Positions 801 to 64,000 of a stretch of 64,000 bases of DNA are shown piece by piece. How positions within the stretch are numbered: the first letter of the stretch is position 1; each line of letters starts with the position of its first letter. Source of the stretch: Candidatus Latescibacterota bacterium. Lineage in GTDB: Bacteria; Latescibacterota; UBA2968; GCA-2709665. The notes under the pieces were generated by a model. It had not been told where the DNA came from, searched no databases, and saw nothing but the letters and a program-made list of their open reading frames with translations. The stretch spans positions 4,672,001-4,736,000 of the forward strand of contig OZ250150.1 of assembly GCA_965237675.1 (NCBI GenBank), in the 5' to 3' direction. The position numbers and the translations under genes were made by a program.

Positions 801-911
801 TGACAACGTCCCACGGTCTGCGAACACCGACGGGATTGCCGTAAGTCAAGGCGCCCTTCCACAAGCTCAGGATAAACTCCGCAACCGTAGCCGGGCACGG
901 TCGTGATATAT
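801..911 (-). other. attC-like site (degenerate) with REP-like insert
   Basis: TGACAACgtcccacggtctgcgaac...gccgggcacggtcgtGATATAT; contains cccttccacaagctcagg. Confidence 0.65.
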
Positions 912-1933: not shown

Positions 1934-1961
1934 GCTAACCTCAATGTTTTTTGCATTTCAT

Positions 1962-2033
1962 GTAGCGACGGCATTAGCGAACAGATACGGCAATACGGAT
2001 CAGATCTGAGGATTACCGAACGTACGGAAACAT
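1962..2033 (-). other. 72-bp attI-like double-dyad site, copy B
   Basis: 54/72 identical, ungapped, to 59782-59853 (hand count). Confidence 0.7.
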
Positions 2034-2104
2034 ATCGGTTTGACGGCGGCCTGGTACCGGAGCGTGATGAATCCACTCAAGCCCCGTCAGCTTCCATAAG
2101 ACTC

Positions 2105-3421
2105 CTAATCATTCCCGTTTTCGCTTTTCGCCAGACTGGCACAGACCAGTTCTTCATCATTTCGAGCGAACACATGTTTATAGGCAAACGCTGGATGCGC
2201 CCACGTGACGCCGCCTCGACGATTCAACTGGTCGCGCGTCGGTTCGATCAGTTTCGCGCGACTGATGACATTCAGCCCGTCCGGCGACAGCGTGGTAATC
2301 AGAAGTTCGCCGCGCTCATTGAACATCCAGACCCTATCGCCGTTCCTGATAAAATGGATGTTGCTCCAGCGGGCTTTGGGTACCGCTGTCAGGTCTTCCC
2401 AGATCCGATCGCCGTTTCGGGCATCGAGACAGCGGAGTTCCCCGTAGCTATCCACACCGTAGATGAAATCGCCAAGTCGGATCGGAGTTGACATCGTGGA
2501 ATGGAGGGCCTCTGTGTTCCGCTCGTCTTTACCCTTACGGTGCCAACCGAATTGCATTGTCGGCTTATCCGGATTCAATCTCAGCAGCAACGATCCATCA
2601 AAGAAATCAGTGAAAAACAACTCGTTCCGATAAAAAACCGGACTTGCGATCCCGATCTCCATGCGATGCGGCGGAAAAGGATGGCGCCAATACACGCCGC
2701 CCGTCTTCGGGTTGAGACCGACGATATTCTCGGCTGTCCGACAGACCAGGACGCGCGCATTGCCCTGTGTGATCACAATCGGCGCCGAGTAAGATGCCTT
2801 GTCGTCAAGGGCCTTCCACCTTTCAGCTCCGGTTTCGCGGTCGAAAGCGACGATACATGCTCCGGGCGTACCGCCGATCTGGATGATCACGTTTGATCCT
2901 TCAACGATCGGCGCGCTTGCAATTCCCCACGTTGGCATCGCAATATTGTACTCGGTGTTTAAGTCTCGCTTCCACTTCAATTCGCCCGTCGCCGCGTCAA
3001 AGCAGTGGAGATGCCCCATCGCCCCCAGGGCGTAAGCGAGGCCATTGTGAACGGTAACTGCCGCGCGGGGACCTGCAACATATTCAATTCTGTACTCGCA
3101 ATCGTACGTGTAGGACCAGATCAGTTCTCCCGTTTCCCACGCAAAACAGTGAACCCGTTCCACCTGTTTCGGTTTCGCAAGACGGTCAGTAACGTAGACG
3201 CGCCCGTCTGCGACGCTGGGGCCGCTATAGCCGCTACCGATGGGCACTCGCCAGCGGACCGGGATCTCGGGTCCGTCAAACGCTTTCAATATCCCGGTTT
3301 CACTCCAGACTCCGTCCCGTGTCGGTCCTCGCCACTGCGGCCATTCGTCGGCCAAAACCGAAGAGACGGGAATCAACACAGCCAGCAACATTGGCGTAAT
3401 TCTCAATTGGATCCGGTTCAC
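2105..3421 (-). CDS. PQQ-like/BamB-type beta-propeller protein with signal peptide
   Basis: ADEWPQWRGPTRDG N-terminus; repeated CFDAATGELKW blades. Confidence 0.88.
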   Translation of the reverse strand: MNRIQLRITPMLLAVLIPVSSVLADEWPQWRGPTRDGVWSETGILKAFDGPEIPVRWRVPIGSGYSGPSVADGRVYVTDRLAKPKQVERVHCFAWETGELIWSYTYDCEYRIEYVAGPRAAVTVHNGLAYALGAMGHLHCFDAATGELKWKRDLNTEYNIAMPTWGIASAPIVEGSNVIIQIGGTPGACIVAFDRETGAERWKALDDKASYSAPIVITQGNARVLVCRTAENIVGLNPKTGGVYWRHPFPPHRMEIGIASPVFYRNELFFTDFFDGSLLLRLNPDKPTMQFGWHRKGKDERNTEALHSTMSTPIRLGDFIYGVDSYGELRCLDARNGDRIWEDLTAVPKARWSNIHFIRNGDRVWMFNERGELLITTLSPDGLNVISRAKLIEPTRDQLNRRGGVTWAHPAFAYKHVFARNDEELVCASLAKSENGND

Positions 3422-7520: not shown

Positions 7521-8201
7521 CTATGTCTCCAGCTTCCTCAGGACGAGAAGCTCATCTTCCATCAAAGCCTCAAGCGTAAAGTCGAACCGGTCGACATCCA
7601 GACACATTTCGACGTCTCGTGGATTGATACCCTTTTCGCCCGCAGCCGCTGCCTTACGGATATCGATCGCTGCCCTGGACCCGGAAGCTCTCCGGATGTA
7701 TGGGGTCGGATCAATTGCGGGATCTCGAACGAGAGCATCGATAAATTCAGCGCAAGACAGGTCCTCCTCTGCCGTTCCCTCCTCACCTGTTACGACATAG
7801 GTCAACTCATCTGGCGCCGAGCCGCGTATTCTCCGGGCGACTGCCGATGCGCAGACGAAGCCCGTGCAGATCAGTGGTTTGCAATGGCGCACGGCAACGG
7901 CGCCAATCGTTCCGGCAGTTGTCCGTTGCACGATGGTTTTGCCGCGAATATCCACTTCCTGGAGGTCCGCGGGTGAATTATACAGATCGAATCCCTCTGC
8001 GGGCGCACCATCCTTCAAGGCGAGGGACCCCGGAAATTGTGCCTTGATTTCCAGGGCTTCTTCAAGGTCGTCAACAAGAATCATCCTCGACGCGCCCTTA
8101 TGCATGGCCCACGCGGCAACGGTATACGCTCGCATTACGTCGATAACAACTGCCGCACCCGAGACAGACTCACACTCCCCGATACCTACAAATCTTGCCA
8201 T
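7521..8201 (-). CDS. 2-phosphosulfolactate phosphatase (ComB family)
   Basis: VVIDVMRAYT, NSP, QRTTAGT, EEDLSCA motifs. Confidence 0.85.
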   Translation of the reverse strand: MARFVGIGECESVSGAAVVIDVMRAYTVAAWAMHKGASRMILVDDLEEALEIKAQFPGSLALKDGAPAEGFDLYNSPADLQEVDIRGKTIVQRTTAGTIGAVAVRHCKPLICTGFVCASAVARRIRGSAPDELTYVVTGEEGTAEEDLSCAEFIDALVRDPAIDPTPYIRRASGSRAAIDIRKAAAAGEKGINPRDVEMCLDVDRFDFTLEALMEDELLVLRKLET

Positions 8202-8213
8202 GGAATATCCGCC

Positions 8214-9050
8214 TCACTTTTCATGTGGTTTGCTATGGGATTGAAATTGATCGAACTCCGGATAGGGGTTCTCCCAGAGCTTGACTCCCCCTACCCAGGT
8301 TACATGGTGTGTGGTCACGATCTCGCCGGATGATGTGGTATTGCGTTCATCGAACAGCTTCAGACGAGGGTCATCGTAGCGAGGAACGGATCCGCCGCCC
8401 CAGGCCCAGATGGAACATTGAAACTGGAGCCATTCGTAGACATCCGGATAGATTCGCTTCTCGATGACGTCGGCTGCAAATCGAATCCCTACGCCGTTCC
8501 TTTCCATGGAGACGCGCATCTGGTCCTGAACGGTGATCATCTGGCTCAGCCGTGTATTGTCGCCAAAAACCTCGCCCACCTCCTGATGGTGCAGTTCTCC
8601 TATCAGTTCACAGAAGATGAGACCTCCCGGCTTCAGGACTCGCAATGCGGCCTGTACTCCGAAACTGTCATACCCGATCGGTGCCCGTTCGGAGTAGACA
8701 AAGTCAAACGATTCCGGCTCCAGGGATTCTCCTTCCGCAAGGAAGTCCAGAAGCCTGAACTCTACGTTCCCTGCCTTCATCGTTCTCAGGGCCTCTTCAG
8801 CCAGTTCTATATGGCTGGGGTCGTTGTCGACACCGAGAGCTGAGTCAAAGCGATCGGCATTCTGTACCAGAGTCCCGCCGTTCCCACAACCGATATCCAG
8901 GACTCGCATCTCAGGGCGAAACTGCGACGCAATAATTTCCCTTGCCCGAGGCGCGATGTTTCCATCAGTGCGGCATTTCGCCGGCCGCGAGCCGTAATAG
9001 GAGTGTTCCTGATTCAGAATCGACTTCAGGCGATCTTCGTCAAGATCCAC
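8214..9050 (-). CDS. Class I SAM-dependent methyltransferase
   Basis: VLDIGCGNG; VLKPGG. Confidence 0.88.
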   Translation of the reverse strand: MDLDEDRLKSILNQEHSYYGSRPAKCRTDGNIAPRAREIIASQFRPEMRVLDIGCGNGGTLVQNADRFDSALGVDNDPSHIELAEEALRTMKAGNVEFRLLDFLAEGESLEPESFDFVYSERAPIGYDSFGVQAALRVLKPGGLIFCELIGELHHQEVGEVFGDNTRLSQMITVQDQMRVSMERNGVGIRFAADVIEKRIYPDVYEWLQFQCSIWAWGGGSVPRYDDPRLKLFDERNTTSSGEIVTTHHVTWVGGVKLWENPYPEFDQFQSHSKPHEK

Positions 9051-10117: not shown

Positions 10118-10289
10118 AATGAAGTGGAAACCAGTGTCCTGTCGCAGAAATATGTCACCATTCTTCCCTGTCTGCGTGCGTGAGGCAGCACGCACAGGCA
10201 GGCGCCGGTTCATCCCGTCTCGCGGCGTTGCCTTGCGTGCCGGGCGACTCGTCGGCCGAATTTCGGCAATCTAGTTCCCGGACAGAACA

Positions 10290-10658
10290 CTATCCGTTCT
10301 TGTCTTGCGCGATACACAGACTGTTTCCATCGGGATCGACGAAACTGAACTCAAGATTGCCCCAACTTTGATCCCAAAGCTCTCCAACCGGGATACCCAC
10401 TTGCCTGTACTCCTCGTAGACGGCCGGCGCGTCCTCGACATAGATCTGAACAGTCCGCGTCCCAGGCGGGCCATCGCCTGGAAACGAGGAAATAACGACG
10501 TGGGCCGCATCCCGGACGACTCCCATATAGCAAGGGTCGAGTTTTGTCGGATGGGGCCTCCAGGCGTACACGCGACGGAACCCGAGTTTTCCACAGTAGA
10601 ATTCCTCGGCAGCTTCCGAACTCGACACGCCCAAAATTGGTATGGCCTCTTTGAACAC
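10290..10658 (-). CDS. VOC/bleomycin-resistance family protein
   Basis: AIPILGV..AEEFY..LGF; DQSWGNLEFSFVDPDGN; GTG start after GGAG. Confidence 0.85.
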   Translation of the reverse strand: MFKEAIPILGVSSSEAAEEFYCGKLGFRRVYAWRPHPTKLDPCYMGVVRDAAHVVISSFPGDGPPGTRTVQIYVEDAPAVYEEYRQVGIPVGELWDQSWGNLEFSFVDPDGNSLCIAQDKNG

Positions 10659-10674: not shown

Positions 10675-10746
10675 TTAGCTTCGGCATTCGCGAGCAGGCA
10701 CGGTAATACGGACCGGTCAGAAAAATCCCCGAATGTTCGTGTACAC
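10675..10746 (-). other. 72-bp attI-like double-dyad site, copy C
   Basis: Colinear with 59782-59853 and 1962-2033 (ggcatt..cga.cag..acggtaatacgga..at..ccgaa.gttcg). Confidence 0.6.
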
Positions 10747-10768
10747 TTCGTGTGGGATTTAACTATCG

Positions 10769-11155
10769 TCAATCCGATTCAAATGCATGTTGGGTCAACC
10801 ACTCAACCAGACTCTCCTTTGAAACCTGGCCGGAAGCAACACCTAAAATAAGCGACTCTTGTTCATCCACACTGGCTCTGATTTCATGACCATTCAGAAT
10901 CAGAAATACCTCCATCGCTGCATGGCCCAATCTCTTATTCCCATCGACGAACGGGTGGTTTTGCACGAGGGAAAAGCATAACGCACCGGCTTTCTCGATC
11001 AACGAAGGATAGAGATCACGCCCCCCATAAGTGATACGGGGTTGCGCGACGGCCGACTCTAATCTGCCTGTATCGCGCAACCCCGATGCTCCGCCACTTT
11101 GATCGACAACGCGTCCGTAAAGTTCGATCACCTCTGCCAAAGAAAGATACCTCAT
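10769..11155 (-). CDS. doc: Doc/Fic family toxin
   Basis: HPFVDGNKR motif; LESAVAQP. Confidence 0.92.
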
Positions 11156-12254: not shown

Positions 12255-13574
12255 ATGCATCGACGACCGCCCAAAGAACTCGTCAGGCAATCCTCAGAGG
12301 GGAACCCCGAAGCGTTTGTCGCCGTTGTCAGGCACTTCGAGGATAGACTGACAACCCTGATCAGATACTTCATTGACAATGAAGATGATGCGTCAGATGT
12401 GCTTCAGGATACGCTCCTCCAGGCCTGGGCTACTCAACACCAGCTTCGGGATCCGTCGAGGATCGGGCCGTGGCTCTTCCAGATTGCGAGAAACCGCTCC
12501 CGTGATTTCCTCAGAGGAAAGCACAGAAGAGAATTGCCGACTTCGCCAATTGAGCTGGAGCGGATTCTGAATCAGTCACGGTCGACGCCGCACAATCAAA
12601 CGGAATCGATTCGGCGGATCAGGCGCGCAATAGAGAAAATACCAAATTACGAAGCGAACGCCATCAAAGACTTCTACTTCAGAGGTCTTACAATTGCAGA
12701 AATCGCAAATCGCACCGGACGTTCCGGTGGTACAATCAAACGCAGGCTGTCAACCGGCCGCAATCGAATACGGGATGTACTTGGCGTGACAGCACAAAGA
12801 AGGAGGACAGAAATGCCAGCACTTGGCTCTCGGGAGTTGAAGCATCGATTTCCTCACGAACGGCCAAGAATTCAGATCAACAGGTCGGAGCGTCCACGGT
12901 TTTCCGTGGACTGCCCCGAACTCAGATGGTGGTTCGCGGTACCCACAATTGATGAGTCGGTGCTCGTCGCAACCTATAGTCCGAACCGGTGGACATTGAC
13001 CTCGGTCATGAAACTGGAAGCATCTGGAATCGCTGAGGTCCACGGCGTCGAACGTATCGAAATAGAGGTGACGGAAATCAATGTGCAAACGCACCTTGCA
13101 AGTAAAGTCTGCTCGATGGTCGGACGTCTCACCGAAGAGAAGGCACAGTACCTCGCTGTCTTTCAACGAAACGGAAAGTTCAGTGTCGAGACCTTCCTGA
13201 GTGAGGCCTTCTGGCGAGATTCTGTACGGAAGCTTGAACCTCAGGGGTCATTTGACGAGGTGGCGCCGCGGGCGTTTTGCAGAACCGACAAATCATGCGA
13301 AGAAGCGGGGGCAGGAAATCACGAAGTTCGCGTAGACGGTCGTTTTTTCTCGTGTTTACGGGTCCTTGAGCTCGAGGGAGATCCCGAAGAGCCTGACTCT
13401 GTATTCACGGAGAGTTTCCTGACCGCCGAAGGCCGTACCTTACTCAGGAGGCATTACTGCCACCCTGAATGCGAAAACGTCTCCGTCGATAAATCCGGAG
13501 AGGTCGACGTGGACGGAGCCAAATTCGTACACTGGTACGATAACCTGACGGATATTGCATTCCGGCAGCGTTAA
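12255..13574 (+). CDS. ECF-type sigma-70 factor with long C-terminal extension (inverted relative to array)
   Basis: Region 2 DASDVLQDTLLQAW..WLFQIARN; region 4 GLTIAEIA..GTIKRRL. Confidence 0.85.
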   Translation: MHRRPPKELVRQSSEGNPEAFVAVVRHFEDRLTTLIRYFIDNEDDASDVLQDTLLQAWATQHQLRDPSRIGPWLFQIARNRSRDFLRGKHRRELPTSPIELERILNQSRSTPHNQTESIRRIRRAIEKIPNYEANAIKDFYFRGLTIAEIANRTGRSGGTIKRRLSTGRNRIRDVLGVTAQRRRTEMPALGSRELKHRFPHERPRIQINRSERPRFSVDCPELRWWFAVPTIDESVLVATYSPNRWTLTSVMKLEASGIAEVHGVERIEIEVTEINVQTHLASKVCSMVGRLTEEKAQYLAVFQRNGKFSVETFLSEAFWRDSVRKLEPQGSFDEVAPRAFCRTDKSCEEAGAGNHEVRVDGRFFSCLRVLELEGDPEEPDSVFTESFLTAEGRTLLRRHYCHPECENVSVDKSGEVDVDGAKFVHWYDNLTDIAFRQR

Positions 13575-13611: not shown

Positions 13612-13691
13612 ATGAAACGTCCCCGGCTGCTGCGAACCGTGCATCGGTTGGAATAAAGCGCCAAATGGCCCATAGCCGGGCATGGTTACGT
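13612..13691 (-). other. attC-like site
   Basis: ATGAAAC..cccggct...agccggg..GTTACGT; contains the stop of the upstream gene. Confidence 0.7.
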
Positions 13692-14558
13692 CCTGTCGGC
13701 GACAACTGGTCCGTTCTGTGATACTGAATGCTCCTTGACGATCATTCTATCCGCATGAAGGGAGACAAAGTTGAAGCATGGCGGGTGCTCTGCGTCAAAA
13801 CTCACTTTCTGTTCATCAGGCCAATAGTTGAGCTGGCAGAAAGTGCTTCCTACGCTGATATACGCAATGCCGTCTTTCCGGATATGGGTCCCTCGATGAA
13901 CATGACCGAAAAACACGCCTCGCAGCCGATCTCTTGCCGGCAAGAGTGCATCATGTAATTCGGCGCCATTGAGCATGCCTACGTATTTGGAATACCACGT
14001 GGAATCCATATCAAGCGGCGAGTGATGAATGAAAACGGTCAATGAGCCGTTCTGCCGGCTAACCTCCGCTCGAACAATATCAAGCTGGTCTTCCGTAACT
14101 TTTCCGAAGTGGCCCGCTTCATCATATGGCTGCTGGGAATCCAGAACCAGAAACCGTTCGCTTGCAATTGAGAATCGATAACAGTTCAGGTCCGATCTGG
14201 ATAGAACATCCTCTTTGGGCCCCGTCTTTAGATGTTTGCGCATATAGGCACGCGTATCGTGGTTTCCTGTCACGAAGTACATGGGAATATTAATCTTAGC
14301 AAATGCCTCCGCAGCCAACTCGTAAGCGACTTCGGTGTCATGGTTCGCTACGTCGCCTGTATGGATTATGAACCGAGGTTGGGTAGGGAGGCCATTTATG
14401 GCTTCAAGGACCCGCAGCAGATTGCGGTAAGGATTGTTGCCCAGCACGGCCCAATCTCTCGAATGCCCTAAGTGCGTGTCACTGATTTGGACGAAATACA
14501 GGGGATCTGCCATGTCTTCCTCCCGTACCGGGAGTTGCGGATCCAATGATTCATACAT
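13686..14558 (-). CDS. Metallophosphoesterase, CpdA/Icc-like
   Basis: SDTH, TGDV, GNHD, HH, GHVH. Confidence 0.9.
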   Translation of the reverse strand: MYESLDPQLPVREEDMADPLYFVQISDTHLGHSRDWAVLGNNPYRNLLRVLEAINGLPTQPRFIIHTGDVANHDTEVAYELAAEAFAKINIPMYFVTGNHDTRAYMRKHLKTGPKEDVLSRSDLNCYRFSIASERFLVLDSQQPYDEAGHFGKVTEDQLDIVRAEVSRQNGSLTVFIHHSPLDMDSTWYSKYVGMLNGAELHDALLPARDRLRGVFFGHVHRGTHIRKDGIAYISVGSTFCQLNYWPDEQKVSFDAEHPPCFNFVSLHADRMIVKEHSVSQNGPVVADRT

Positions 14559-24927: not shown

Positions 24928-26298
24928 TTAGCCGGGACACATCCTACTGAATTCAACGTATTTCTTCTTGAGGACCTCGATCGGGTTTCTTTGCTTGCTT
25001 TCGAAAACTTCGACCATCATACAAAGGTCAGAATCATCAAGAATAAGTATGCAGCGGCGCTGGCCAGCCCACAGATCAATTGTATTCCGCAAGATGTTCC
25101 TACTTGGTTTGTTCCTGGCCAATATTACGCCGAAGCGGCCGAATCCATCGATCATGTAGCGATTAAGCTGGTTTATGTGTTCACGCTTAACGCTTTGGAC
25201 GTTCTTCATTTCGACGACTATCTGCCGGCAGTCGTAAGCGTCGTAAATTTCCGCGAGGAAATCCGTACATCTGTTGTTATAGAAGATTAGATCGCGGATC
25301 AACACTCCGCTATGTGTACGGCTTTGCAGTTCCGCGAAGTCAAGGTGTGGGTAAAACAATGACGACAGAAGTTGGCTGCTTATGTCCTCGAATAGTCGAT
25401 CTGCTTTTCCCTCTAAACCGATCGGGAGCTTAGCGAGTTTCGACAGTCTCCTCTTCGCAGAAACGACTGGGATGGGCGTGAAGAGCGGGTCGTTCCGACA
25501 ATCAGCTTGCGTGCGCTCCTTGCTGGCAACGTACGCCTGTAACACATCGTAGTGTGTCCGATTGTAGGTGAGAACGGAGACGCGGTCTGTGCTGGATGCA
25601 TTCTTGTCGACTTGTTTAAGAAAGTATCCCCTGAAGTAATCATCATATTGAATCCAAGGACTGTACCTCAGCCAACGCCTAGGCACAAGGATGATGGGAT
25701 CCCTCGTTTCAGGGTTCAATGGGAGATTTGTTGTCTCTTCCTTCAGAACATTACTTTTGTAATCGTACACGCGTTGGCTGCACCCTTCGACTGGAATGCC
25801 GTATTGTTCACAAGACTGGATCGTATAGTCAATTAGAAATGATTTCAGGAACGTACTCGCTATGTCGCTGACGCGGTCCTTGGAGACGTTCTCCACCAAA
25901 AGCTGAATTTCCTCAAAGTGCAGAAAGCCGCATTCCCTTATCTGGGGAACGGAATCAAAAAGGCGGAGGATTTCCAGCGCCAGATCCGGACCCATTCGGT
26001 GACCCTTCCTTATGCGAGACGATCCCAAGCCAACCTCATTGCACTCCGATGCTGAAATTAGCAGTGCGACTGCCTTGTCGACGTCACCCCTTTTATACAT
26101 CAACCCAAGATAATTGAAGCTATTTACGATTGCCGTGTGCAATGAATTGTCTTGCAACGACGGTGACTTCCACAAAAGGAAAGGATCGATGAATAGTGGG
26201 ATGTCCTCATTTAGGAACGGTATCGCGAAATCGACCTCCTCCTGCGTGATCGGGAGGTCGTGGTAGTCGTTCAGTCTTGGTCTAATTATAGCCATCAA
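24928..26298 (-). CDS. Hypothetical protein with C-terminal PD-(D/E)xK-like nuclease motif
   Basis: DIPLFIDPFLL N-terminus; IRDLIFYN...VEMKN; lower GC than flanks. Confidence 0.7.
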   Translation of the reverse strand: MMAIIRPRLNDYHDLPITQEEVDFAIPFLNEDIPLFIDPFLLWKSPSLQDNSLHTAIVNSFNYLGLMYKRGDVDKAVALLISASECNEVGLGSSRIRKGHRMGPDLALEILRLFDSVPQIRECGFLHFEEIQLLVENVSKDRVSDIASTFLKSFLIDYTIQSCEQYGIPVEGCSQRVYDYKSNVLKEETTNLPLNPETRDPIILVPRRWLRYSPWIQYDDYFRGYFLKQVDKNASSTDRVSVLTYNRTHYDVLQAYVASKERTQADCRNDPLFTPIPVVSAKRRLSKLAKLPIGLEGKADRLFEDISSQLLSSLFYPHLDFAELQSRTHSGVLIRDLIFYNNRCTDFLAEIYDAYDCRQIVVEMKNVQSVKREHINQLNRYMIDGFGRFGVILARNKPSRNILRNTIDLWAGQRRCILILDDSDLCMMVEVFESKQRNPIEVLKKKYVEFSRMCPG

Positions 26299-43779: not shown

Positions 43780-44358
43780 TCAGATTTCCCAGTTCGACAC
43801 GTATGATCGGCTCTTGAGTCGCTCAGCAAGCTCAATCAATACAGATAGTGACTTGTTTAACCGGGCCGTAGTTGCGTCGTCGAGTTCGCCTCCCTCACCC
43901 CAATTATCGCCGTGGGCATACACATTATACGGGCTGACAATGCACTTGAAATCCAGCATAAGGGACGTTGCCAGCGACGCAAACGCCATATAGCTGTGCG
44001 GCAAGGCGCCCGAATTGACAAACATCACGATCTTGTCATAGAAAGCTCCTCTGAGCGATCCGCCTGGTGGCGTTGAACCTATGTACTCGACGAATTTCTT
44101 GAGCTCTGCGCAACACGCCCAGTTGTATACCGGACTGGCCAATATCACCGCATCGGATGCCGCAATGATCCTGTGGCACGATTGGTAAACCACGGATGAA
44201 TAGATTTCGTCGTCGTCGAAATTCGGCGGATCAAGTCGTCGAAGATCGATGAAGTCAACAGAAATGCCTCTGTCCTCCAGGGCGGTCCGACACATGGCGG
44301 CAAGATCCCTGCTGTGACTGTCCGCATTGAGGCTGCTGCTGACGACTGAAAATCTCAT
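43780..44358 (-). CDS. NADPH-dependent FMN reductase
   Basis: SSSLNADSHS; ASPVYNW..LKKF. Confidence 0.85.
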   Translation of the reverse strand: MRFSVVSSSLNADSHSRDLAAMCRTALEDRGISVDFIDLRRLDPPNFDDDEIYSSVVYQSCHRIIAASDAVILASPVYNWACCAELKKFVEYIGSTPPGGSLRGAFYDKIVMFVNSGALPHSYMAFASLATSLMLDFKCIVSPYNVYAHGDNWGEGGELDDATTARLNKSLSVLIELAERLKSRSYVSNWEI

Positions 44359-47880: not shown

Positions 47881-47966
47881 ATATATCGTCCTCGCGGGCT
47901 GCTAACCTGCGTGAGCAGGATTGGCGAAGTGGCGAAATCCTCGAGCCACAGCCCGTCGTGTTACAC
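47881..47966 (-). other. attC-like site
   Basis: cgggctg...cagcccg..GTTACAC. Confidence 0.72.
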
Positions 47967-50124: not shown

Positions 50125-50206
50125 AGATATCGTTCTCGCCGTGCCCGAACCGCGAAAGTGGTTGCGCGAAGGGCGCAGCCCGTCGCCGGGCACGGTCGTG
50201 TTATGT
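50125..50206 (-). other. attC-like site
   Basis: ccgtgcccg/cgggcacgg stem, GTTATGT; near copy of 53433-53516. Confidence 0.8.
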
Positions 50207-50793: not shown

Positions 50794-50886
50794 TTATAGC
50801 GCAATCGCCATCTCCTCCGTCGCTTTCAGCAGCGCGTTGCCGATCACCTCGAACTGGATCGGATTGACTTCGGTCTTCGCATGCAA
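50794..50886 (-). pseudogene. Hydantoinase B/oxoprolinase N-terminal stub
   Basis: AAGGAG RBS, TTG start, MHAKTEVNPIQFEVIGNALLKATEEMAIAL*. Confidence 0.65.
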
Positions 50887-51831
50887 CTACGGAATCTCCT
50901 TTAAGAAATGCCCTATCAGGCCGGTGTTCCGTGCCAGAAATCGTTGTACGCCGCCAGCGGCCCGTCCCCGTGCGGCCCGGTAGCCAGATCCAGCCCCCCG
51001 AAGAGATAGACGGACTCGCCCCCCACTGTCATAACGGGGATTCGCCTGACACCGGGACGTTCGGCGCCAGCAGAGTAATCCTCCGCACCGTTGTGTGGAT
51101 ATAGACAGTCCCACCGGCCGGCACGAAGATCGTACTGCCACAGATCGTTCAGCTGGGGGTGCTCCCCTTCCCCTCCTGCAAATCCTCCGAACAGATACAG
51201 GTGATCTCCGATCACAGCGTATCCCAGCCCGTACCGAGGGGAAGGCCGTGCAACATCATCCGACCGGTTCTCCTGAATGCAGGTCCAGGCGCCTCCGTCG
51301 GGATCGTATTCCCACAGATCGTTGTAGAACTCCGGCGCTCGACCCTGACTGTCCCGACCGCCCCACAGGTAGAGCCTGCCGTTCCAGCCGGCCAGCACGG
51401 GACAGTATCGTTTCGGCGGCCAACCGTTGCGTCCATTCGATGCAGGCCCCAGGTGCTCCCATTTCCCGGCCGGCGCCTTGTAGGTCCACAGCTGTGCGTG
51501 CGTCATCGCGCCATGGCCCCCCATCAGATACAGGTAATCACCCAGAACGGCCGCCCCCATCCCGCCCGAACCGGCGGGACGATGCCCATCCGCCGTTATT
51601 CCTGATGCGCGCCCGTCGTCGGGCTCTAACAGCTCCCACGAGGCTGTCTTCGGATCGTAGGCCCAGAGATCGTTCAGCTTGATCTCCCTCTTGCCGGGGC
51701 CCCGCACTGAGGACCCGCCAAAAAGATAAAGCCTGCCGTTCACGGGCAGCCAGGTCGTGAGCTTCCGGGTACACGGTCTGGTATCGGACGGTCTGAACCC
51801 GATGCGCCCATCGTGGTCTTCCAACCGCGTC
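50842..51831. repeat. Direct repeat, apparently identical to 63011-64000
   Basis: Constant offset of 12169 bp; identical ORF translations. Confidence 0.92.
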
Positions 51832-52043
51832 CACCGGCCTCGACCCGGGTCGTAGCGCCACAGGTCGTTCAATGAGCCCTGGACGGAAAGATCTCCAGGC
51901 CCTTTCGGCCGGCCGTACATCACTTTTATCCCCCCGAACAGGTAGACGCATCCATTGTAGCTCAACATCCCGCCGAAGGCCGCCCGCCTACAGGGTACAT
52001 CCTCGGCTTGCTCCTGGTCTGGATGCAGCAGTTCCCACTTCAT
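50916..52043 (-). CDS. Kelch-repeat beta-propeller protein
   Basis: Repeated LYLFGG...NDLW.YD...W. Confidence 0.9.
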   Translation of the reverse strand: MKWELLHPDQEQAEDVPCRRAAFGGMLSYNGCVYLFGGIKVMYGRPKGPGDLSVQGSLNDLWRYDPGRGRWTRLEDHDGRIGFRPSDTRPCTRKLTTWLPVNGRLYLFGGSSVRGPGKREIKLNDLWAYDPKTASWELLEPDDGRASGITADGHRPAGSGGMGAAVLGDYLYLMGGHGAMTHAQLWTYKAPAGKWEHLGPASNGRNGWPPKRYCPVLAGWNGRLYLWGGRDSQGRAPEFYNDLWEYDPDGGAWTCIQENRSDDVARPSPRYGLGYAVIGDHLYLFGGFAGGEGEHPQLNDLWQYDLRAGRWDCLYPHNGAEDYSAGAERPGVRRIPVMTVGGESVYLFGGLDLATGPHGDGPLAAYNDFWHGTPA

Positions 52044-53432: not shown

Positions 53433-53516
53433 GGCTAACGTTTTCGCCGTGCCCGAACCGCGAAGCGGTTGCGCGAAGGGCCGTATGGCCCGTAGCCGGG
53501 CACGGACGTGTTATGT
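53433..53516 (-). other. attC-like site (intact)
   Basis: GGCTAAC..ccgtgcccg...cgggcacgg..GTTATGT. Confidence 0.88.
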
Positions 53517-54471: not shown

Positions 54472-54559
54472 TTATAACGTTCCCGCGGGCTGCGAACCTG
54501 CGCCAGCAGGTTGCTGCGGAGGCCCGAAAGGGCCGGAGCCGCAGCCCGACGTGTTAGCT
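54472..54559 (-). other. attC-like site (intact)
   Basis: TTATAAC..cgggctgcg...cgcagcccg..GTTAGCT. Confidence 0.88.
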
Positions 54560-55189: not shown

Positions 55190-55341
55190 AGATAACGTTC
55201 CCGGGCTATACGACGTTCCCCGGTCCGGCGAAGCCGGATTGGCGCGGCGCTTGCGTCTCTCAGCAAGCGACGTGACAAAGGGGAATGTGCCCGAAGGGCC
55301 GGAGGGAGCGAAGCGACCGGAGCGAATAGCCCGTGTTAGCA
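55190..55341 (-). other. attC-like site (long, intact)
   Basis: AGATAAC..cgggctat...atagcccg.GTTAGCA. Confidence 0.85.
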
Positions 55342-55939: not shown

Positions 55940-57627
55940 CCCGATTAATTCATGAATCGTCAGATAGAGCATTTTAAGGAAGCAGAAAGAGCTTCCGAGT
56001 GAGACAAGAAACGAAAGCGCATGGGCTGTGACGGATTTGGCGTGTTCAAGCCGTTTGGGCGGCGCCTGCTTTGCCTCGTGACGTCAGGTTGACCTCGATG
56101 CCCGTGTCAAGCGCACAGACTTCTCCATGACCTTTGGTGGTGGTCGATGCAAATGTGAAGGCGGGGTCAGCACGTCGATGGGTTATGGAACACCCGTTGC
56201 CAGATTATAGAGGATCTTGCCATAAAGGTGTTTGAGTGGAAACGCCGTTGGCAGATGGAACTTGATTTTAGTTTTCAACTCACAAACGCGCCCGGCGACT
56301 TTCAAGAGACGATTTTGCAGGGTATTGAACTGTGCGTTGGTCCACTTCGTGCCGCGCAATCCGATTGCAGCCAGGCTGTGCATCAGGACATAGGCGGCGC
56401 TGTGGAGAAAGAGACGGAAGTGATTGGCCTGGAAGGTGTGACAAGAGGTGCGATCGGAATGGAGAAAGGTCTTGTGATTTTTGATGAAGTTTTCCATCCT
56501 GCCGCGTGTGCAATAGGCGGTTTTGTAGATGAATGACGGTTGGGCGCGCTTCAGGTTGGTGACCACGAATCGGATATTGACACCTTGCGGTGTCACTTCC
56601 GCCTTGCAGACGATGCGTTGTGGACACGCCCAGGTGCCGGCCTGATAGGCCCAACAGCGATAAAGGCGCACGGTTTCTCCGGAATCGGCATACCGCGTTT
56701 TGGCCTGGTCTATCAAGGACTGTGCCTTCCGCAGGAGTTTGGCGTTGCCGTTCTGTCCGAGGACAAAATACACATCTTCTTCCTCACACAACACGTGCAC
56801 TTCCGGACACGAAAAATGCGCATCGCCACGTAACAGGATCTCCACGTCGGGCCAGGCTTTACGCAGGTAGGCGATCACCCGTTTGAGGATGGTGACGATC
56901 TCTTTACCCGCAGGCCGCCTGCCAGGACGCAAGACCGTCGTGATCAACTTGCCGGTTTGGCCTTCATAGATATGCAGGGGCTGGTAGCAATAGCCATTGA
57001 AATACGCATTGAACAACGACAACTGTTGAGACCCATGCACCTTGTCTTCGGTGTCATCGATGTCCAACAGAATGGCTTCCGGCGGTTCCTCATACGAGGC
57101 GACAAACACATCCGCAAAGGCCTTGGCGATCCGATACAAATCGGTTCTGCTGATGCGGTTCTCGAACCGACTCATCGTGGGCTGACTGGCCAGGTCCGCG
57201 CCAGACAACGGCAACCGATCACAGGCCGCCTTGAAGCCGGGGTCCTCGCGTAACGTCTTGCAATCATTCGCATCCTCATACCCACAGGCCATCTGAAAGA
57301 CACGTTGTTTGATCAGGTCCATCATCGAATGATGTACGTAACTTTGATGTCGATGATCGGTGAGCGCCGCAACCATCCGATGCAAAATGCCGACATTGGC
57401 CTCGACCTCACGAAGCAGCATCACCCCGACGTCGGTCGTCAGCACGCCCCCGTCGAACGTGGCTTCTACCTGCCTACCAGAAAGACTTGCGAAAGACAAC
57501 CTGTGATGTTTATCTTGAACTCCCACGGTAGTTTCCTCCTGTTTCATTGTTATTAGGTTATTTGCGTAACCATAATATAATACAATGACTTGGGTATGGA
57601 AACTACCTTTTTTGTGAATTATTCAGG
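55940..57627 (-). mobile_element. IS1380-family element, intact copy 2 (1688 bp)
   Basis: TIRs as copy 1; 4-bp TSD TTAG. Confidence 0.93.
56183..57547 (-). CDS. IS1380 family transposase
   Basis: FDGG..T.D.G, GYEDANDC, LASQPTMSR, LDID, LRGD, RG.MENFIK. Confidence 0.93.
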   Translation of the reverse strand: MKQEETTVGVQDKHHRLSFASLSGRQVEATFDGGVLTTDVGVMLLREVEANVGILHRMVAALTDHRHQSYVHHSMMDLIKQRVFQMACGYEDANDCKTLREDPGFKAACDRLPLSGADLASQPTMSRFENRISRTDLYRIAKAFADVFVASYEEPPEAILLDIDDTEDKVHGSQQLSLFNAYFNGYCYQPLHIYEGQTGKLITTVLRPGRRPAGKEIVTILKRVIAYLRKAWPDVEILLRGDAHFSCPEVHVLCEEEDVYFVLGQNGNAKLLRKAQSLIDQAKTRYADSGETVRLYRCWAYQAGTWACPQRIVCKAEVTPQGVNIRFVVTNLKRAQPSFIYKTAYCTRGRMENFIKNHKTFLHSDRTSCHTFQANHFRLFLHSAAYVLMHSLAAIGLRGTKWTNAQFNTLQNRLLKVAGRVCELKTKIKFHLPTAFPLKHLYGKILYNLATGVP

Positions 57628-59781: not shown

Positions 59782-59853
59782 CTAACTACGGTATTACCGA
59801 ACAGTTACGGTAATGCGTACCTGATCCGAAGATCTGCGAACGTTCGGGAACAT
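59782..59853 (-). other. 72-bp attI-like double-dyad site, copy A, 60 bp downstream of the recombinase stop
   Basis: gtattaccg-N8-cggtaatgc and cgaacgttcg dyads; ends GTTAG on the - strand. Confidence 0.7.
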
Positions 59854-59913
59854 TCCACGCTGAAGCTTGTAGCCCGAACATGTTCAGGAATGCTTCCTAT
59901 GGTGGCATCGTCT

Positions 59914-60174
59914 CTAATCAAAAACTGCCTCCCTTTCTTCCATCAATGCATCCAGCGGGCTCTGGATTTTCGCGAGATCCCGATTCGTCACCCGAGTATA
60001 GATCTGTGTGGTCTTTGGGCTTACGTGCCCGAGCAACACCTGGATATATCGCAGGTCCGTCCCGCGTTCAAGCAGGTGTGTCGCAAAGGAATGCCGTAGC
60101 GTCGGTATCCGCTGGACAATTTTCGCTTTCTCGCAAGCCCAGTCAAACGCGGTCTGTACCGACCTCTCCCTGTG
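59914..60174 (-). pseudogene. Tyrosine recombinase/integron-integrase-like C-terminal remnant
   Basis: Manual translation [73 protein letters not shown]. Confidence 0.92.
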
Positions 60175-60398
60175 CTATCGGATTTCGCCAACCCATTGCG
60201 CCCAAAAAACGGGAGCAACTTAGTCGTGAAACTGAAATCCCAAGTCTCAAATATCGCCACTCACTCGAACCGCATCCATTCAACAATATCATCGAGAGCC
60301 TTGTCTTGATAGCTCACCGCGTCCTCCCGTCCTACAAAGCCATGAACAAAATCCGTGGAGGCAGTCGCCTTCCTTGGATCATCATTCCACACGTGATA

Positions 60399-60467
60399 CT
60401 CCCTCAGCCCAATTACCGTCGTGGGCATACACATTATACGGGCTGACAATGCACTTGAAATCCAGCA
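60399..60467. repeat. 69-bp internal fragment of the FMN reductase gene (43890-43958)
   Basis: 3 mismatches, last 48 bp identical. Confidence 0.88.
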
Positions 60468-60481
60468 GTATGCATAGTTCG

Positions 60482-60913
60482 TCAGTTGTCGATCAGAGCT
60501 TGCCTGATCCGTTCTGCATATGAATCCAACTCTTGATCAGGTAGACGATCTAACCACCGTGGATAAACTCTCAATAAACCATCGTCTATCATCCTTGGGT
60601 GGATATGAAAATGCACATGGGGGACTTCCTGGTGAGCGCCTGGCCCATTGCTCTGCCATATGCTTAATCCGTCAAGCGCGAATGCTTTTTTGACGGTTTG
60701 AGAAAGTAGGATCATAGCTTTCATAATCCCGAATCCTGCTTCCTCTGACAGGGCATAGATGTCCTGAAAGTGCTCTTTGGGAATGACCAGAATGTGCCCA
60801 GGAATTGCTTGCCTTGGATCTATCATCGCGATGACAGAGTCCGTCTCGTATACAATCCTTGCGCTCTTAGTTCCTTCCACGATCTCACAGAAAACACATT
60901 TCGTTTCATCCAT
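60482..60913 (-). CDS. HIT family hydrolase
   Basis: CVFC; QEVPHVHFHIHPR. Confidence 0.92.
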   Translation of the reverse strand: MDETKCVFCEIVEGTKSARIVYETDSVIAMIDPRQAIPGHILVIPKEHFQDIYALSEEAGFGIMKAMILLSQTVKKAFALDGLSIWQSNGPGAHQEVPHVHFHIHPRMIDDGLLRVYPRWLDRLPDQELDSYAERIRQALIDN

Positions 60914-61009
60914 CCAGTCCCCACATTGCTTTGTGAAAAAGTTATTATGACATACGAAAAAGGAACCCCACGGTAGTCGGTGTGTGCCATTCTTTGATTT
61001 CTTGCGTGC

Positions 61010-61092
61010 AGTCAACGATCTCACGGGCCGTGAACCTGCGAAGCAGGTTGGGCGACGGGCGTAAACCCGAAGGCGGGGGCACGGTGTTAGAC
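61010..61092 (-). other. attC-like site
   Basis: AGTCAAC..aacctgcgaagcaggtt..GTTAGAC. Confidence 0.8.
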
Positions 61093-63003: not shown

Positions 63004-63084
63004 CGTTGCGGATCACCTCGAACTGGATCGGATTGACTTCGGTCTTCGCATGCAACTACGGAATCTCCTTTAAGAAATGCCCTA

Positions 63085-64000
63085 TCAGGCCGGTGTTCCG
63101 TGCCAGAAATCGTTGTACGCCGCCAGCGGCCCGTCCCCGTGCGGCCCGGTAGCCAGATCCAGCCCCCCGAAGAGATAGACGGACTCGCCCCCCACTGTCA
63201 TAACGGGGATTCGCCTGACACCGGGACGTTCGGCGCCAGCAGAGTAATCCTCCGCACCGTTGTGTGGATATAGACAGTCCCACCGGCCGGCACGAAGATC
63301 GTACTGCCACAGATCGTTCAGCTGGGGGTGCTCCCCTTCCCCTCCTGCAAATCCTCCGAACAGATACAGGTGATCTCCGATCACAGCGTATCCCAGCCCG
63401 TACCGAGGGGAAGGCCGTGCAACATCATCCGACCGGTTCTCCTGAATGCAGGTCCAGGCGCCTCCGTCGGGATCGTATTCCCACAGATCGTTGTAGAACT
63501 CCGGCGCTCGACCCTGACTGTCCCGACCGCCCCACAGGTAGAGCCTGCCGTTCCAGCCGGCCAGCACGGGACAGTATCGTTTCGGCGGCCAACCGTTGCG
63601 TCCATTCGATGCAGGCCCCAGGTGCTCCCATTTCCCGGCCGGCGCCTTGTAGGTCCACAGCTGTGCGTGCGTCATCGCGCCATGGCCCCCCATCAGATAC
63701 AGGTAATCACCCAGAACGGCCGCCCCCATCCCGCCCGAACCGGCGGGACGATGCCCATCCGCCGTTATTCCTGATGCGCGCCCGTCGTCGGGCTCTAACA
63801 GCTCCCACGAGGCTGTCTTCGGATCGTAGGCCCAGAGATCGTTCAGCTTGATCTCCCTCTTGCCGGGGCCCCGCACTGAGGACCCGCCAAAAAGATAAAG
63901 CCTGCCGTTCACGGGCAGCCAGGTCGTGAGCTTCCGGGTACACGGTCTGGTATCGGACGGTCTGAACCCGATGCGCCCATCGTGGTCTTCCAACCGCGTC
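63085..64000 (-). CDS. Kelch-repeat protein, duplicate copy, 5' end outside window
   Basis: Identical translation to the C-terminal part of 50916-52043. Confidence 0.9.
   Translation of the reverse strand, partial: TRLEDHDGRIGFRPSDTRPCTRKLTTWLPVNGRLYLFGGSSVRGPGKREIKLNDLWAYDPKTASWELLEPDDGRASGITADGHRPAGSGGMGAAVLGDYLYLMGGHGAMTHAQLWTYKAPAGKWEHLGPASNGRNGWPPKRYCPVLAGWNGRLYLWGGRDSQGRAPEFYNDLWEYDPDGGAWTCIQENRSDDVARPSPRYGLGYAVIGDHLYLFGGFAGGEGEHPQLNDLWQYDLRAGRWDCLYPHNGAEDYSAGAERPGVRRIPVMTVGGESVYLFGGLDLATGPHGDGPLAAYNDFWHGTPA

Follow-up and report, generated by a model that had tools for sequence, protein, structure and literature searches.

Integrons are defined, and detected by software, through a domain specific to their recombinase IntI, and this domain is held to enable the use of folded, single-stranded attC sites. 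Arrays that lack IntI are filed as attC clusters without an integron integrase (CALINs), the origin of which is unexplained. Treponema denticola provides an example of an inverted-integrase integron. In this group, named in PMC4889954, intI reads towards the cassettes, which makes it the closest integron comparison for the locus described below. Two further comparisons are the 'Integron-like' subgroup of simple tyrosine recombinases, which comprises IntI together with insertion-less recombinases of elements of the IS91 and IS3 types (IS, insertion sequence; Smyshlyaev, Barabas, Bateman; 10.1101/542381), and the attI sites and delta-attI-type cassettes found in mobile integrons (Gonzales Machuca et al. 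2026, PMC12901181). Here we analyze a 64,000-nucleotide (nt) stretch of a Candidatus Latescibacterota genome (assembly GCA_965237675.1, contig OZ250150.1, positions 4672001-4736000; hereafter the window), in which an 86-amino-acid (aa) remnant of a tyrosine recombinase is followed by a linear site that we call T2. We lean towards reading this feature, on sequence comparison, as a decayed platform copy of an integron variant, the integrase of which would be an insertion-less, N-terminally extended sister of IntI, with T2 as its attI.

The system shares with IntI and attI a recombinase of the Xer/IntI branch, with IntI as both its best profile and its best solved relative, a recombinase gene heading a co-oriented attC array, and a non-palindromic adjoining site to which cassettes are joined at G/TT (the slash marks the junction). 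Unlike IntI, the recombinase lacks an insertion of roughly 40-60 positions, carries an extra N-terminal domain of about 100 aa and reaches the cut-off of no curated IntI model; unlike attI, T2 recurs many times inside arrays. As with attI and delta-attI-type cassettes (PMC12901181), a linear site lies by the integrase gene, shortened forms of it end cassettes and the crossover falls at GTT; in contrast to mobile-integron attI, the T2 sequence is unrelated, its copies are chromosomal and old, and its binding by the recombinase is putative. The IS91-linked members of the Integron-like subgroup (284-314 aa) differ in that our recombinase has the N-terminal domain, no adjoining Y2 transposase, and a link to attC arrays and a 3' site. 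Like CALINs (Cury et al. 2016, PMC4889954), the arrays of this genome hold many attC and no IntI; unlike CALINs, one of them is about 151 kb long and syntenic among species, a second, linear site type (T2) is present, and remnants of a specific non-IntI recombinase stand at the head. The two-domain core is also that of the dimer resolvases XerC, XerD and XerA, unlike which the recombinase copies are multicopy, decayed and array-bound.

The window copy and its site comprise the following parts (window coordinates; the minus strand is the cassette strand).

60175-60177, minus strand: in-frame TAG that closes the remnant frame upstream; paralogue homology begins at about 60168
59914-60174, minus strand: 86-aa C-terminal remnant of an integron-like tyrosine recombinase (translation, PF00589, NCBIfam profiles, paralogue alignment)
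59914-59916, minus strand: stop TAG of the remnant
59838-59885, minus strand: small hairpin with xAAC...GTTx ends (GAAC-AT-GTTCGGG and CCCGAAC-GTTC), within an extended site of about 135 nt kept behind all recombinase copies
59782-59862, minus strand: T2 core, attI-like linear site; ends CCGTAG, then TTAG; homology between copies ceases at GTTAG (59786-59782)

The remnant corresponds to residues about 291-376 of a 376-aa intact form, its N-terminal 290 residues being gone. A PF00589 match of 54.4 bits (cut-off 27.1; E 1.7e-14) spans profile positions 107-169 of 172, and the frame is therefore not due to chance. Its protein is 84-89% identical to paralogues and to orthologues in three species, which carry the same TAG. 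The best NCBIfam match was the integron-integrase model TIGR02249 (81 bits versus a cut-off of 265), followed by the XerC, XerD and XerA models. No usable start was present, the sole candidate being an internal GTG giving 41 aa. The window copy has RIPTLRH in place of the RISIHTLRH of two paralogues; in the DNA alignment it alone has a gap of 6 columns, and this 6-nt deletion removed the His of the HxLRH motif (H314), leaving R317, H340 and Y349 of the catalytic residues as well as the SPLD motif. A preliminary description of the window had reported an 86-aa minus-strand frame at 60174-59914 without a start, with an upstream TAG and a lost His, all of which translation and paralogue alignment confirmed. 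Its proposal that the remnant is a candidate engine of the array did not hold: the window feature is a dead pseudogene fragment plus its attached site, internal to the array, and no engine.

Four copies of the recombinase lie on one strand of the genome (genome coordinates) and differ mutually by 8-12%.

4760282-4760566, same strand as the window copy: copy C, residues 282-376 kept
4757847-4758650, same strand as the window copy: copy B, residues 107-373 kept (346-aa open frame)
4731917: window copy
about 4611281-4611352, same strand as the window copy: copy D, residues about 330-353 kept

Database homologues at 97% identity are 376 aa long, and the intact form was seen as database proteins alone, with three intact sequences in the protein cluster. 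It consists of an N-terminal domain of about 100 aa (motif KIKTIPGRRW..CWSIP), which none of the genome's copies retains, a SAM-like core-binding domain and a catalytic domain in which R224, K249, H314, R317, H340 and Y349 are invariant across 27 intact homologues. PF00589 gave 143-148 bits for the intact homologue P0003 and for paralogue B, identifying a tyrosine-recombinase catalytic domain. Against TIGR02249, P0003 reached 213 bits (cut-off 265) in two pieces that skip about positions 176-234, and paralogue B likewise matched piecewise (about 1-175 and 235-315), leaving out the IntI insertion; NF011946 gave 149 bits (cut-off 435). When aligned by BLASTP with the true IntI of the related genome G017 (464.6 bits), P0003 showed 36% identity and a gap of about 46 residues at the insertion. 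The original call of a non-IntI-type recombinase was thus upheld, both by the missing insertion and by IntI models that stay under their cut-offs; the motif it had quoted as typical of IntI, GYDIRTVQELLGH.DV.TTMIYTHVLN, was seen in the true IntI of a related genome. P0003 scored barely above the cut-off of the XerA-type naming model NF040815 (222.7 bits versus 220) and far under those of the XerC and XerD models (189 and 181 bits versus 335 and 330), which speaks against membership in XerC or XerD. Two separate Xer-type genes are located at 1.53 and 5.37 Mb. Among solved structures, IntI4 (2a3v, 151 bits) is the nearest.

From these comparisons, the recombinase appears to be the closest kind of relative of IntI that is without the IntI-specific insertion. 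It falls in the already named Integron-like subgroup, as delimited in 10.1101/542381. Consistent with this placement, it shares 46% identity with the integrase that a 2.5-kb multicopy IS91-family element encodes in G017 and G020, and the scores of the two are similar (NF040815, about 215-223 bits; TIGR02249, about 213 bits). The N-terminal domain showed weak, sub-threshold similarity to HARP (PF07443), with 22 bits in the G017 homologue and E <= 0.01 in four of the 27 homologues; the matches cover residues 25-54 of P0003 and 29-63 of the homologue at locus L036. HARP is a DNA-structure-binding module of annealing helicases, and we treat the match as a lead only. A protein-atlas look-up of the N-terminal 100 aa gave scores of 0.79 at most and was uninformative.

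We next turn to the site downstream of the recombinase. Three copies can be aligned from within the gene to about 135 nt past the stop and diverge exactly after ..CCGTAGTTAGC. The last 80 nt or so of this extended site form the T2 core, which in the window starts about 52 nt past the remnant stop (about 59862). An nhmmer search returned 13 copies of it in the genome (E <= 4e-11; next match E 0.43), all 13 on the minus (cassette) strand and inside two attC arrays that make up about 169 kb (3%) of the 5.6-Mb genome. Every recombinase copy has T2 at its 3' end, and homology stops at one and the same GTT despite other GTTs within T2. Shortened copies lie 5-63 nt past the stops of unrelated genes, among them Fic/Doc, HicB-like and genes of 142, 304 and 438 aa. 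Outside the genus, T2 was present in one of two sister-genus genomes and in none of three further genera, giving two genera in all, and the 3' flanks of homologues in other genera differ from it.

T2 had previously been described as a double-dyad site. The window copy does fold (-21.6 kcal/mol, z -2.5), with a second dyad of ATTACCG and CGGTAAT at 59813-59792, but RNAalifold found no conserved structure across the 13 copies on either strand, and T2 is therefore conserved as sequence rather than as fold. It does not form the hairpin typical of attC, and its ATTACCG/CGGTAAT dyad is without covariation. What recurs are sequence boxes: GTTCGG occurs three times in the extended site (two of them in the T2 core), the direct repeat AWTRCCGTA twice, and a GTTCG box is common to T2 and the local attC sites, where it is nearly invariant, 17-20 nt before the crossover. 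A structured RNA or known RNA family was considered and rejected, Rfam being without matches at gathering or at E <= 1.

The case for T2 as a present or past recombination partner of attC is strongest in cassettes that stand behind both kinds of site. A 2,760-nt cassette is found behind the T2 of copy B at 4757707 in array 1 and, 96.7% identical, behind an attC at 1412215 in array 2; a 798-nt cassette occurs behind the T2 of copy C at 4760150 and, 98.7% identical, behind an attC at 4748543. The latter carries, as judged from the sequence rather than a profile scan, a DUF4160/DUF2442-like gene pair. In both pairs homology starts exactly at GTTAGC, so that the GTT of T2 is a genuine cassette junction, like that of attI, and the shared junctions are of the kind left by attI x attC insertion in integrons. 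The earlier claim that the gene owns a GTTAG site at its 3' side hence survives in part: the GTT is a real cassette junction, but T2 is not private to the gene, since it also ends unrelated cassettes and occurs in genus genomes without the recombinase.

Right after G/TT, many cassettes share a conserved, C-rich leader some 60 nt long (..AATCGCCCCCACCACCCC..AGAA..CGTGATTGCGTGCAAAA). It was located at these positions.

59781-59700 (window): after T2
4744441, 4724221, 4720945 and 4749391 (genome): following attC
4611076 (genome): following T2

The leader is also present at L135 (G017), L034 (G012) and L167 (G015), nearly identical between genera whose recombinases share 46% identity; it could be a 5' untranslated-region element, a promoter or the far half of a recombination site.

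The attC calls in the arrays of this genome were made with covariance models built in this analysis, not with IntegronFinder. The minus-strand intergenic DNA of the arrays contains imperfect hairpins that start ..TAAC and end ..ACGTTA. RNAalifold gave no structure for eight of these sites, and the structure was set by hand and then tested against slid partners: a 4-bp R''/R' helix and an 8-bp L''/L' helix with an asymmetric loop between them were paired in 77% of cells versus 29-38% in the slid-partner controls, with compensatory changes at five of eight L-helix pairs. The first covariance model, based on these eight sites, found 37 attC in 200 kb of two candidate regions, 37 of 37 on the minus strand. 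Rebuilding the model on these 37 sites yielded 22 in the window at E <= 0.1. Arm-alignment and constrained-fold scans were dropped, as they did not separate arrays from control DNA, and a stricter stem-rule scan served as a pointer only (6 window matches versus the 22 of the covariance model; background of 22 matches in 512 kb, or 0.043 per kb). The arrays extend over about 4,608,796-4,760,226 (about 151 kb) and 1,405,618-1,423,048 (about 17 kb). These attC and the T2 copies all lie on the minus strand, and the recombinase is co-oriented with the cassettes, as had been proposed.

Neither array is accompanied by IntI. No model matched at cut-off in this genome, and a six-frame search reading through stops found no fragment; IntI was likewise absent from all 14 other genus genomes. 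Among the 41 genomes searched, this one included, true IntI was found in two, G017 and G036. By the published definition (at least two clustered attC, no IntI nearby), both arrays are CALINs.

The large array occupies one chromosomal place in three species of the genus and is syntenic throughout. Over the head-proximal part of about 40 kb (genome 4720000-4760150 compared with G012 and G008), identity was 97-99.9%, against 86-89% in the flanking genes and 75-95% in the distal array, which suggests that the species recently exchanged, or converted, the head of the array. In four genera the recombinase or its remnant stands at the array head, adjoining ordinary chromosomal genes, with the following co-oriented layouts.

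G012: conserved flank, full-length gene (frameshifted by two 1-nt insertions near codon 107), T2, attC cassettes
G015 (sister genus): methyltransferase, cupin and TonB-type receptor genes (other strand), remnant plus T2, at least seven attC
G017: core metabolic genes, intact 50%-identical homologue, IS3, at least five attC
G038 (another family): ArsR and P-type ATPase genes, remnant, IS256-like element, four attC

As for IntI, the gene adjoins an attC array with a recombination site between them, but it is co-oriented instead of divergent. Outside this genome, co-oriented attC were found downstream in 7 of 10 loci with this gene type or its remnant (L034, L166, L167, L036, L135 (weak), L164 and L150). 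A metagenome scan for intact close relatives returned a remnant (L150) as its sole close match. The PhyH-like neighbors of the array 2 head are only 21% identical to those of the G017 locus, and an orthology of the two was rejected.

Beyond the order, homologues without the insertion (about 32-39% identity) also lead attC arrays, namely on plasmids of Bacteroidota and in one Cytophagales genome. The three plasmids considered are NZ_CP012644.1, NZ_CP111080.1 and NZ_CP041688.1.

Rufibacter tibetensis plasmid: 484-aa homologue, 39% identity, TIGR02249 pieces 7-179 and 241-315; eight co-oriented small genes, six attC-like repeats

No IntI was found on this plasmid. Plasmids of Pontibacter and Chryseobacterium show the same gene layout, with an IS110-family element and a group II intron in their arrays; elements of both kinds are frequent guests of integron arrays. 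On the Chryseobacterium sp. plasmid (L181), a 209-nt repeat lies 82 nt past the recombinase stop and twice more in the co-oriented gene run; it is possibly the counterpart of T2.

8087-8295, L181: 209-nt repeat
10182-10390, L181: 209-nt repeat
12563-12771, L181: 209-nt repeat

In the Cytophagales genome (L094), where no IntI model matched at cut-off, the insertion-less homologue is followed by three textbook attC (GCCCAAC...GTTGGGT; -24.1 kcal/mol, z -3.95). A crude structural scan around homologues with the N-terminal domain gave 19 matches in 90 kb downstream versus 16 in 173 kb upstream; for shorter homologues the figures were 19 in 283 kb and 14 in 255 kb. Homologues at L045 and L048, where a downstream direct-repeat search found no clear attC family, were left out of the array count.

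The preliminary description had named two outcomes that would overturn it, namely full-length homologues with the I2 insertion of IntI or without a link to arrays and site. The close homologues argued against both; L107 and L110, more distant homologues with arrays, turned out to be true IntI (467 bits each) and were set aside. At L110 (a Candidatus Eisenbacteria genome, 10001-11086), the true IntI sits in a 466-aa open frame in which the query match starts at residue 55, so that this protein may carry part of the N-terminal domain besides the insertion. Its gene has the same orientation as four nearly identical attC within 8 kb downstream.

We report as established what the remnant is, that IntI and its insertion are missing, that T2 is confined to the arrays and to one strand, the G/TT junctions and the head position in several lineages. 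We infer, in addition, that the intact recombinase catalyzes T2 x attC recombination, and by what route the internal copies arose. On the reading towards which we lean, the recombinase gene would be transcribed towards the cassettes with T2 directly behind it in the role of attI, and ordinary hairpin-attC cassettes would be joined to T2 at the G/TT of CCGTAG/TTAGC. The ancestral layout would have been a recombinase-plus-T2 module at the array head beside ordinary chromosomal genes. Internal copies, such as that in the window, would be old platforms brought into the array by site x site recombination or array fusion and then eroded from the 5' side by ordinary deletions, while their shortened T2 sites now form the 3' ends of unrelated cassettes, as do delta-attI-type cassettes in class 1 integrons.

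Several observations weigh against this reading. All four copies in the genome lack at least the first 106 residues, and the 5' ends of the remnants are irregular, do not fall at GTT sites and have no site preceding them. Of the 14 other genus genomes, three (G003, G008, G012) hold fragments, all truncated or frameshifted; because all copies are broken, the module cannot be the present engine in this genome or in those three. T2, in turn, is present in 13 of the same 14 genomes. The earlier proposal that a different recombinase clade with a 3' insertion site serves the array keeps the support of the missing IntI, the head position and the GTT junction, but finds only broken copies in this genome and in the three with fragments. 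Among the three species compared, no gain or loss was cleanly bounded by T2; what turned up were IS insertions, an indel of 425 nt and replacements that break outside GTT, and their array differences are altogether untidy (deletions, IS insertions, replacements). No recombinase is recognizable at the head of array 2 in this genome, of two large G015 arrays or of one G038 array; three loci (L134, L163, L168) have no attC; the G016 homologue is inverted and lies inside an array; and G017 possesses a true IntI elsewhere that could act in trans. Among distant homologues, the lineage-specific covariance model found no attC in 80 loci. We did not accept this null as proof of absence, since the model also missed sites seen by eye and by fold at L094 and L179. 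One true IntI locus (L110) contributes to the downstream excess near homologues with the N-terminal domain; without it, 15 matches in about 82 kb remain. In the literature, too, attC recombination is linked to the IntI insertion, and 50 genes next to attC that carry PF00589 alone were surveyed and judged not to be IntI (both PMC4889954).

A more general proposal, which we offer tentatively and stop short of calling probable, combines three statements: that a second, IntI-independent integron engine may exist, formed by an insertion-less clade with an N-terminal, possibly HARP-like, domain and a linear 3' attI, and capturing hairpin attC cassettes; that this clade never had, or lost, the IntI insertion; and that such platforms would head large chromosomal arrays in this order as well as Bacteroidota plasmid arrays, explaining part of the abundance of CALINs. 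Full-text literature searches gave no description of non-IntI recombinases heading attC arrays, although members of the clade may already be included in the trees and lists that supplement Cury et al.

Two other explanations are unlikely, but each accounts for part of the data. Recombinase and T2 could together be a selfish, travelling cassette-like unit that inserts itself and T2-ended passengers at the GTT of arrays built otherwise, with the window copy as a decayed insertion. Several copies at different depths of one array, their divergence of 8-12%, as expected for separate arrivals, and the T2 ends of cassettes with unrelated genes (Doc, HicB-like, the 438-aa gene) are in keeping with such a unit, as is the 46% identity to integrases of a multicopy 2.5-kb IS91-family element. 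A random passenger would, however, not be expected beside core genes at array heads in four genera. Moreover, no intact unit could be delimited at both ends, the irregular 5' ends of the copies are preceded by no site, and no T2-bounded empty/filled pair was found among the three species. The arrangement of IS91 elements, a multicopy integrase followed by a Y2 transposase, is not seen here but in the 284-314-aa relatives of G017 and G020. A tblastn search of this genome with the G017 transposase gave no match at E <= 1, and a PF04986 search gave none either, though its controls also failed to match. In G017 itself, a true IntI (338 aa) at L125 (7505-11234) is followed after 180 nt by the 2.5-kb IS91-family element (284-aa integrase plus 399-aa Y2-type transposase); the 3' part of IntI and the element are duplicated elsewhere (L126), and a similar element exists in six copies in G020.

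Similarly improbable is an origin of the arrays as ordinary IntI integrons that have long since lost intI (CALINs), with the recombinase as an unrelated neighbor, for example from an integrative or IS91-like element favoring array heads, and T2 as an old attI or a secondary GTT site used by IntI. The canonical hairpins of the attC sites fit this explanation, as do the presence of IntI in the wider family (G017, G036), the IS91-type relatives adjoining IntI in G017 and the true IntI of two array-linked homologues in other phyla (L107, L110). IntI is reported to accept secondary GTT sites and cassette ends derived from attI (10.1101/2022.09.11.507474; PMC12901181), and sedentary arrays commonly lose intI (PMC4889954). 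Yet no fragment of IntI was found in this genome, even with stops read through in six frames, or in the 14 other genus genomes. In four genera, it is the non-IntI gene of which remnants persist at array heads. T2 is fixed to the 3' end of the gene in every copy, with homology ending at one GTT, and Bacteroidota plasmids as well as a Cytophagales genome, in which no IntI was found, repeat the layout. Finally, a chance open reading frame (ORF) accompanied by a terminator or random-repeat dyads, suggested by the missing start codon and a fold of the window site copy of only z -2.5, is ruled out for practical purposes by the PF00589 match (E 1.7e-14), the 84-89% identity to paralogues and orthologues and the 13 site copies at E <= 4e-11.

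The window neighborhood is that of a cassette array, with the following features.

61010-61092, minus strand: attC hairpin preceding the unit of HIT gene, 62-aa ORF, remnant and T2
60482-60916, minus strand: HIT-family gene (PF01230, 71 bits), cargo in the unit of the remnant
55190-55341, minus strand: next attC downstream of the remnant's T2
10675-10752, minus strand: second T2 copy in the window, 12 nt past the stop of a Fic/Doc gene (10769-11155)
1960-2041, minus strand: third T2 copy in the window, 63 nt past the stop of the 438-aa PQQ-propeller gene (2105-3421)
801-61092, minus strand: span of the 22 window attC hairpins (covariance model, E <= 0.1), part of the array of about 151 kb
54472-54559, 53433-53516, 50125-50206, 47881-47966, 13612-13694 and 801-911, minus strand: example attC sites

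Between the remnant's T2 and the attC at 55190-55341 lie a small membrane ORF, a 458-aa ORF without Pfam match and an IS4-like insertion (56183-57547). Cassette-type cargo near the remnant comprises HIT, HigB/HigA, HAD, Kelch, Fic/Doc and PQQ-propeller genes, plus IS4-like insertions. The IS4-like element (DDE_Tnp_1_4, 521 bits) has several array copies (window 56183-57547 and 24928-26298; genome 4736324-4738018), and two of the array's insertions are absent from the matching places in G012. The 62-aa ORF just upstream of the remnant opens with a 69-nt stretch (60399-60467) that recurs with 96% identity at 43890-43958, inside another cassette. A Kelch-repeat gene occurs twice in the array together with its upstream region, at a distance of 12.2 kb (50835-51134 equals 63004-63303, 100%), and further repeat families lie at 51128-51874 and 63297-63848.

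Even if the proposed integron variant does not hold, the locus provides a well-documented pseudogene and a new, array-specific repeat family. If it does, the definition of integrons and the tools used to search for them miss a class of integrons, part of the CALIN puzzle would be explained, and the accepted tie between the IntI insertion and attC recombination would need another look. The plasmid-borne Bacteroidota cases, moreover, would bear on cassette traffic in a phylum with few known integrons (10.1101/2022.02.28.482270).

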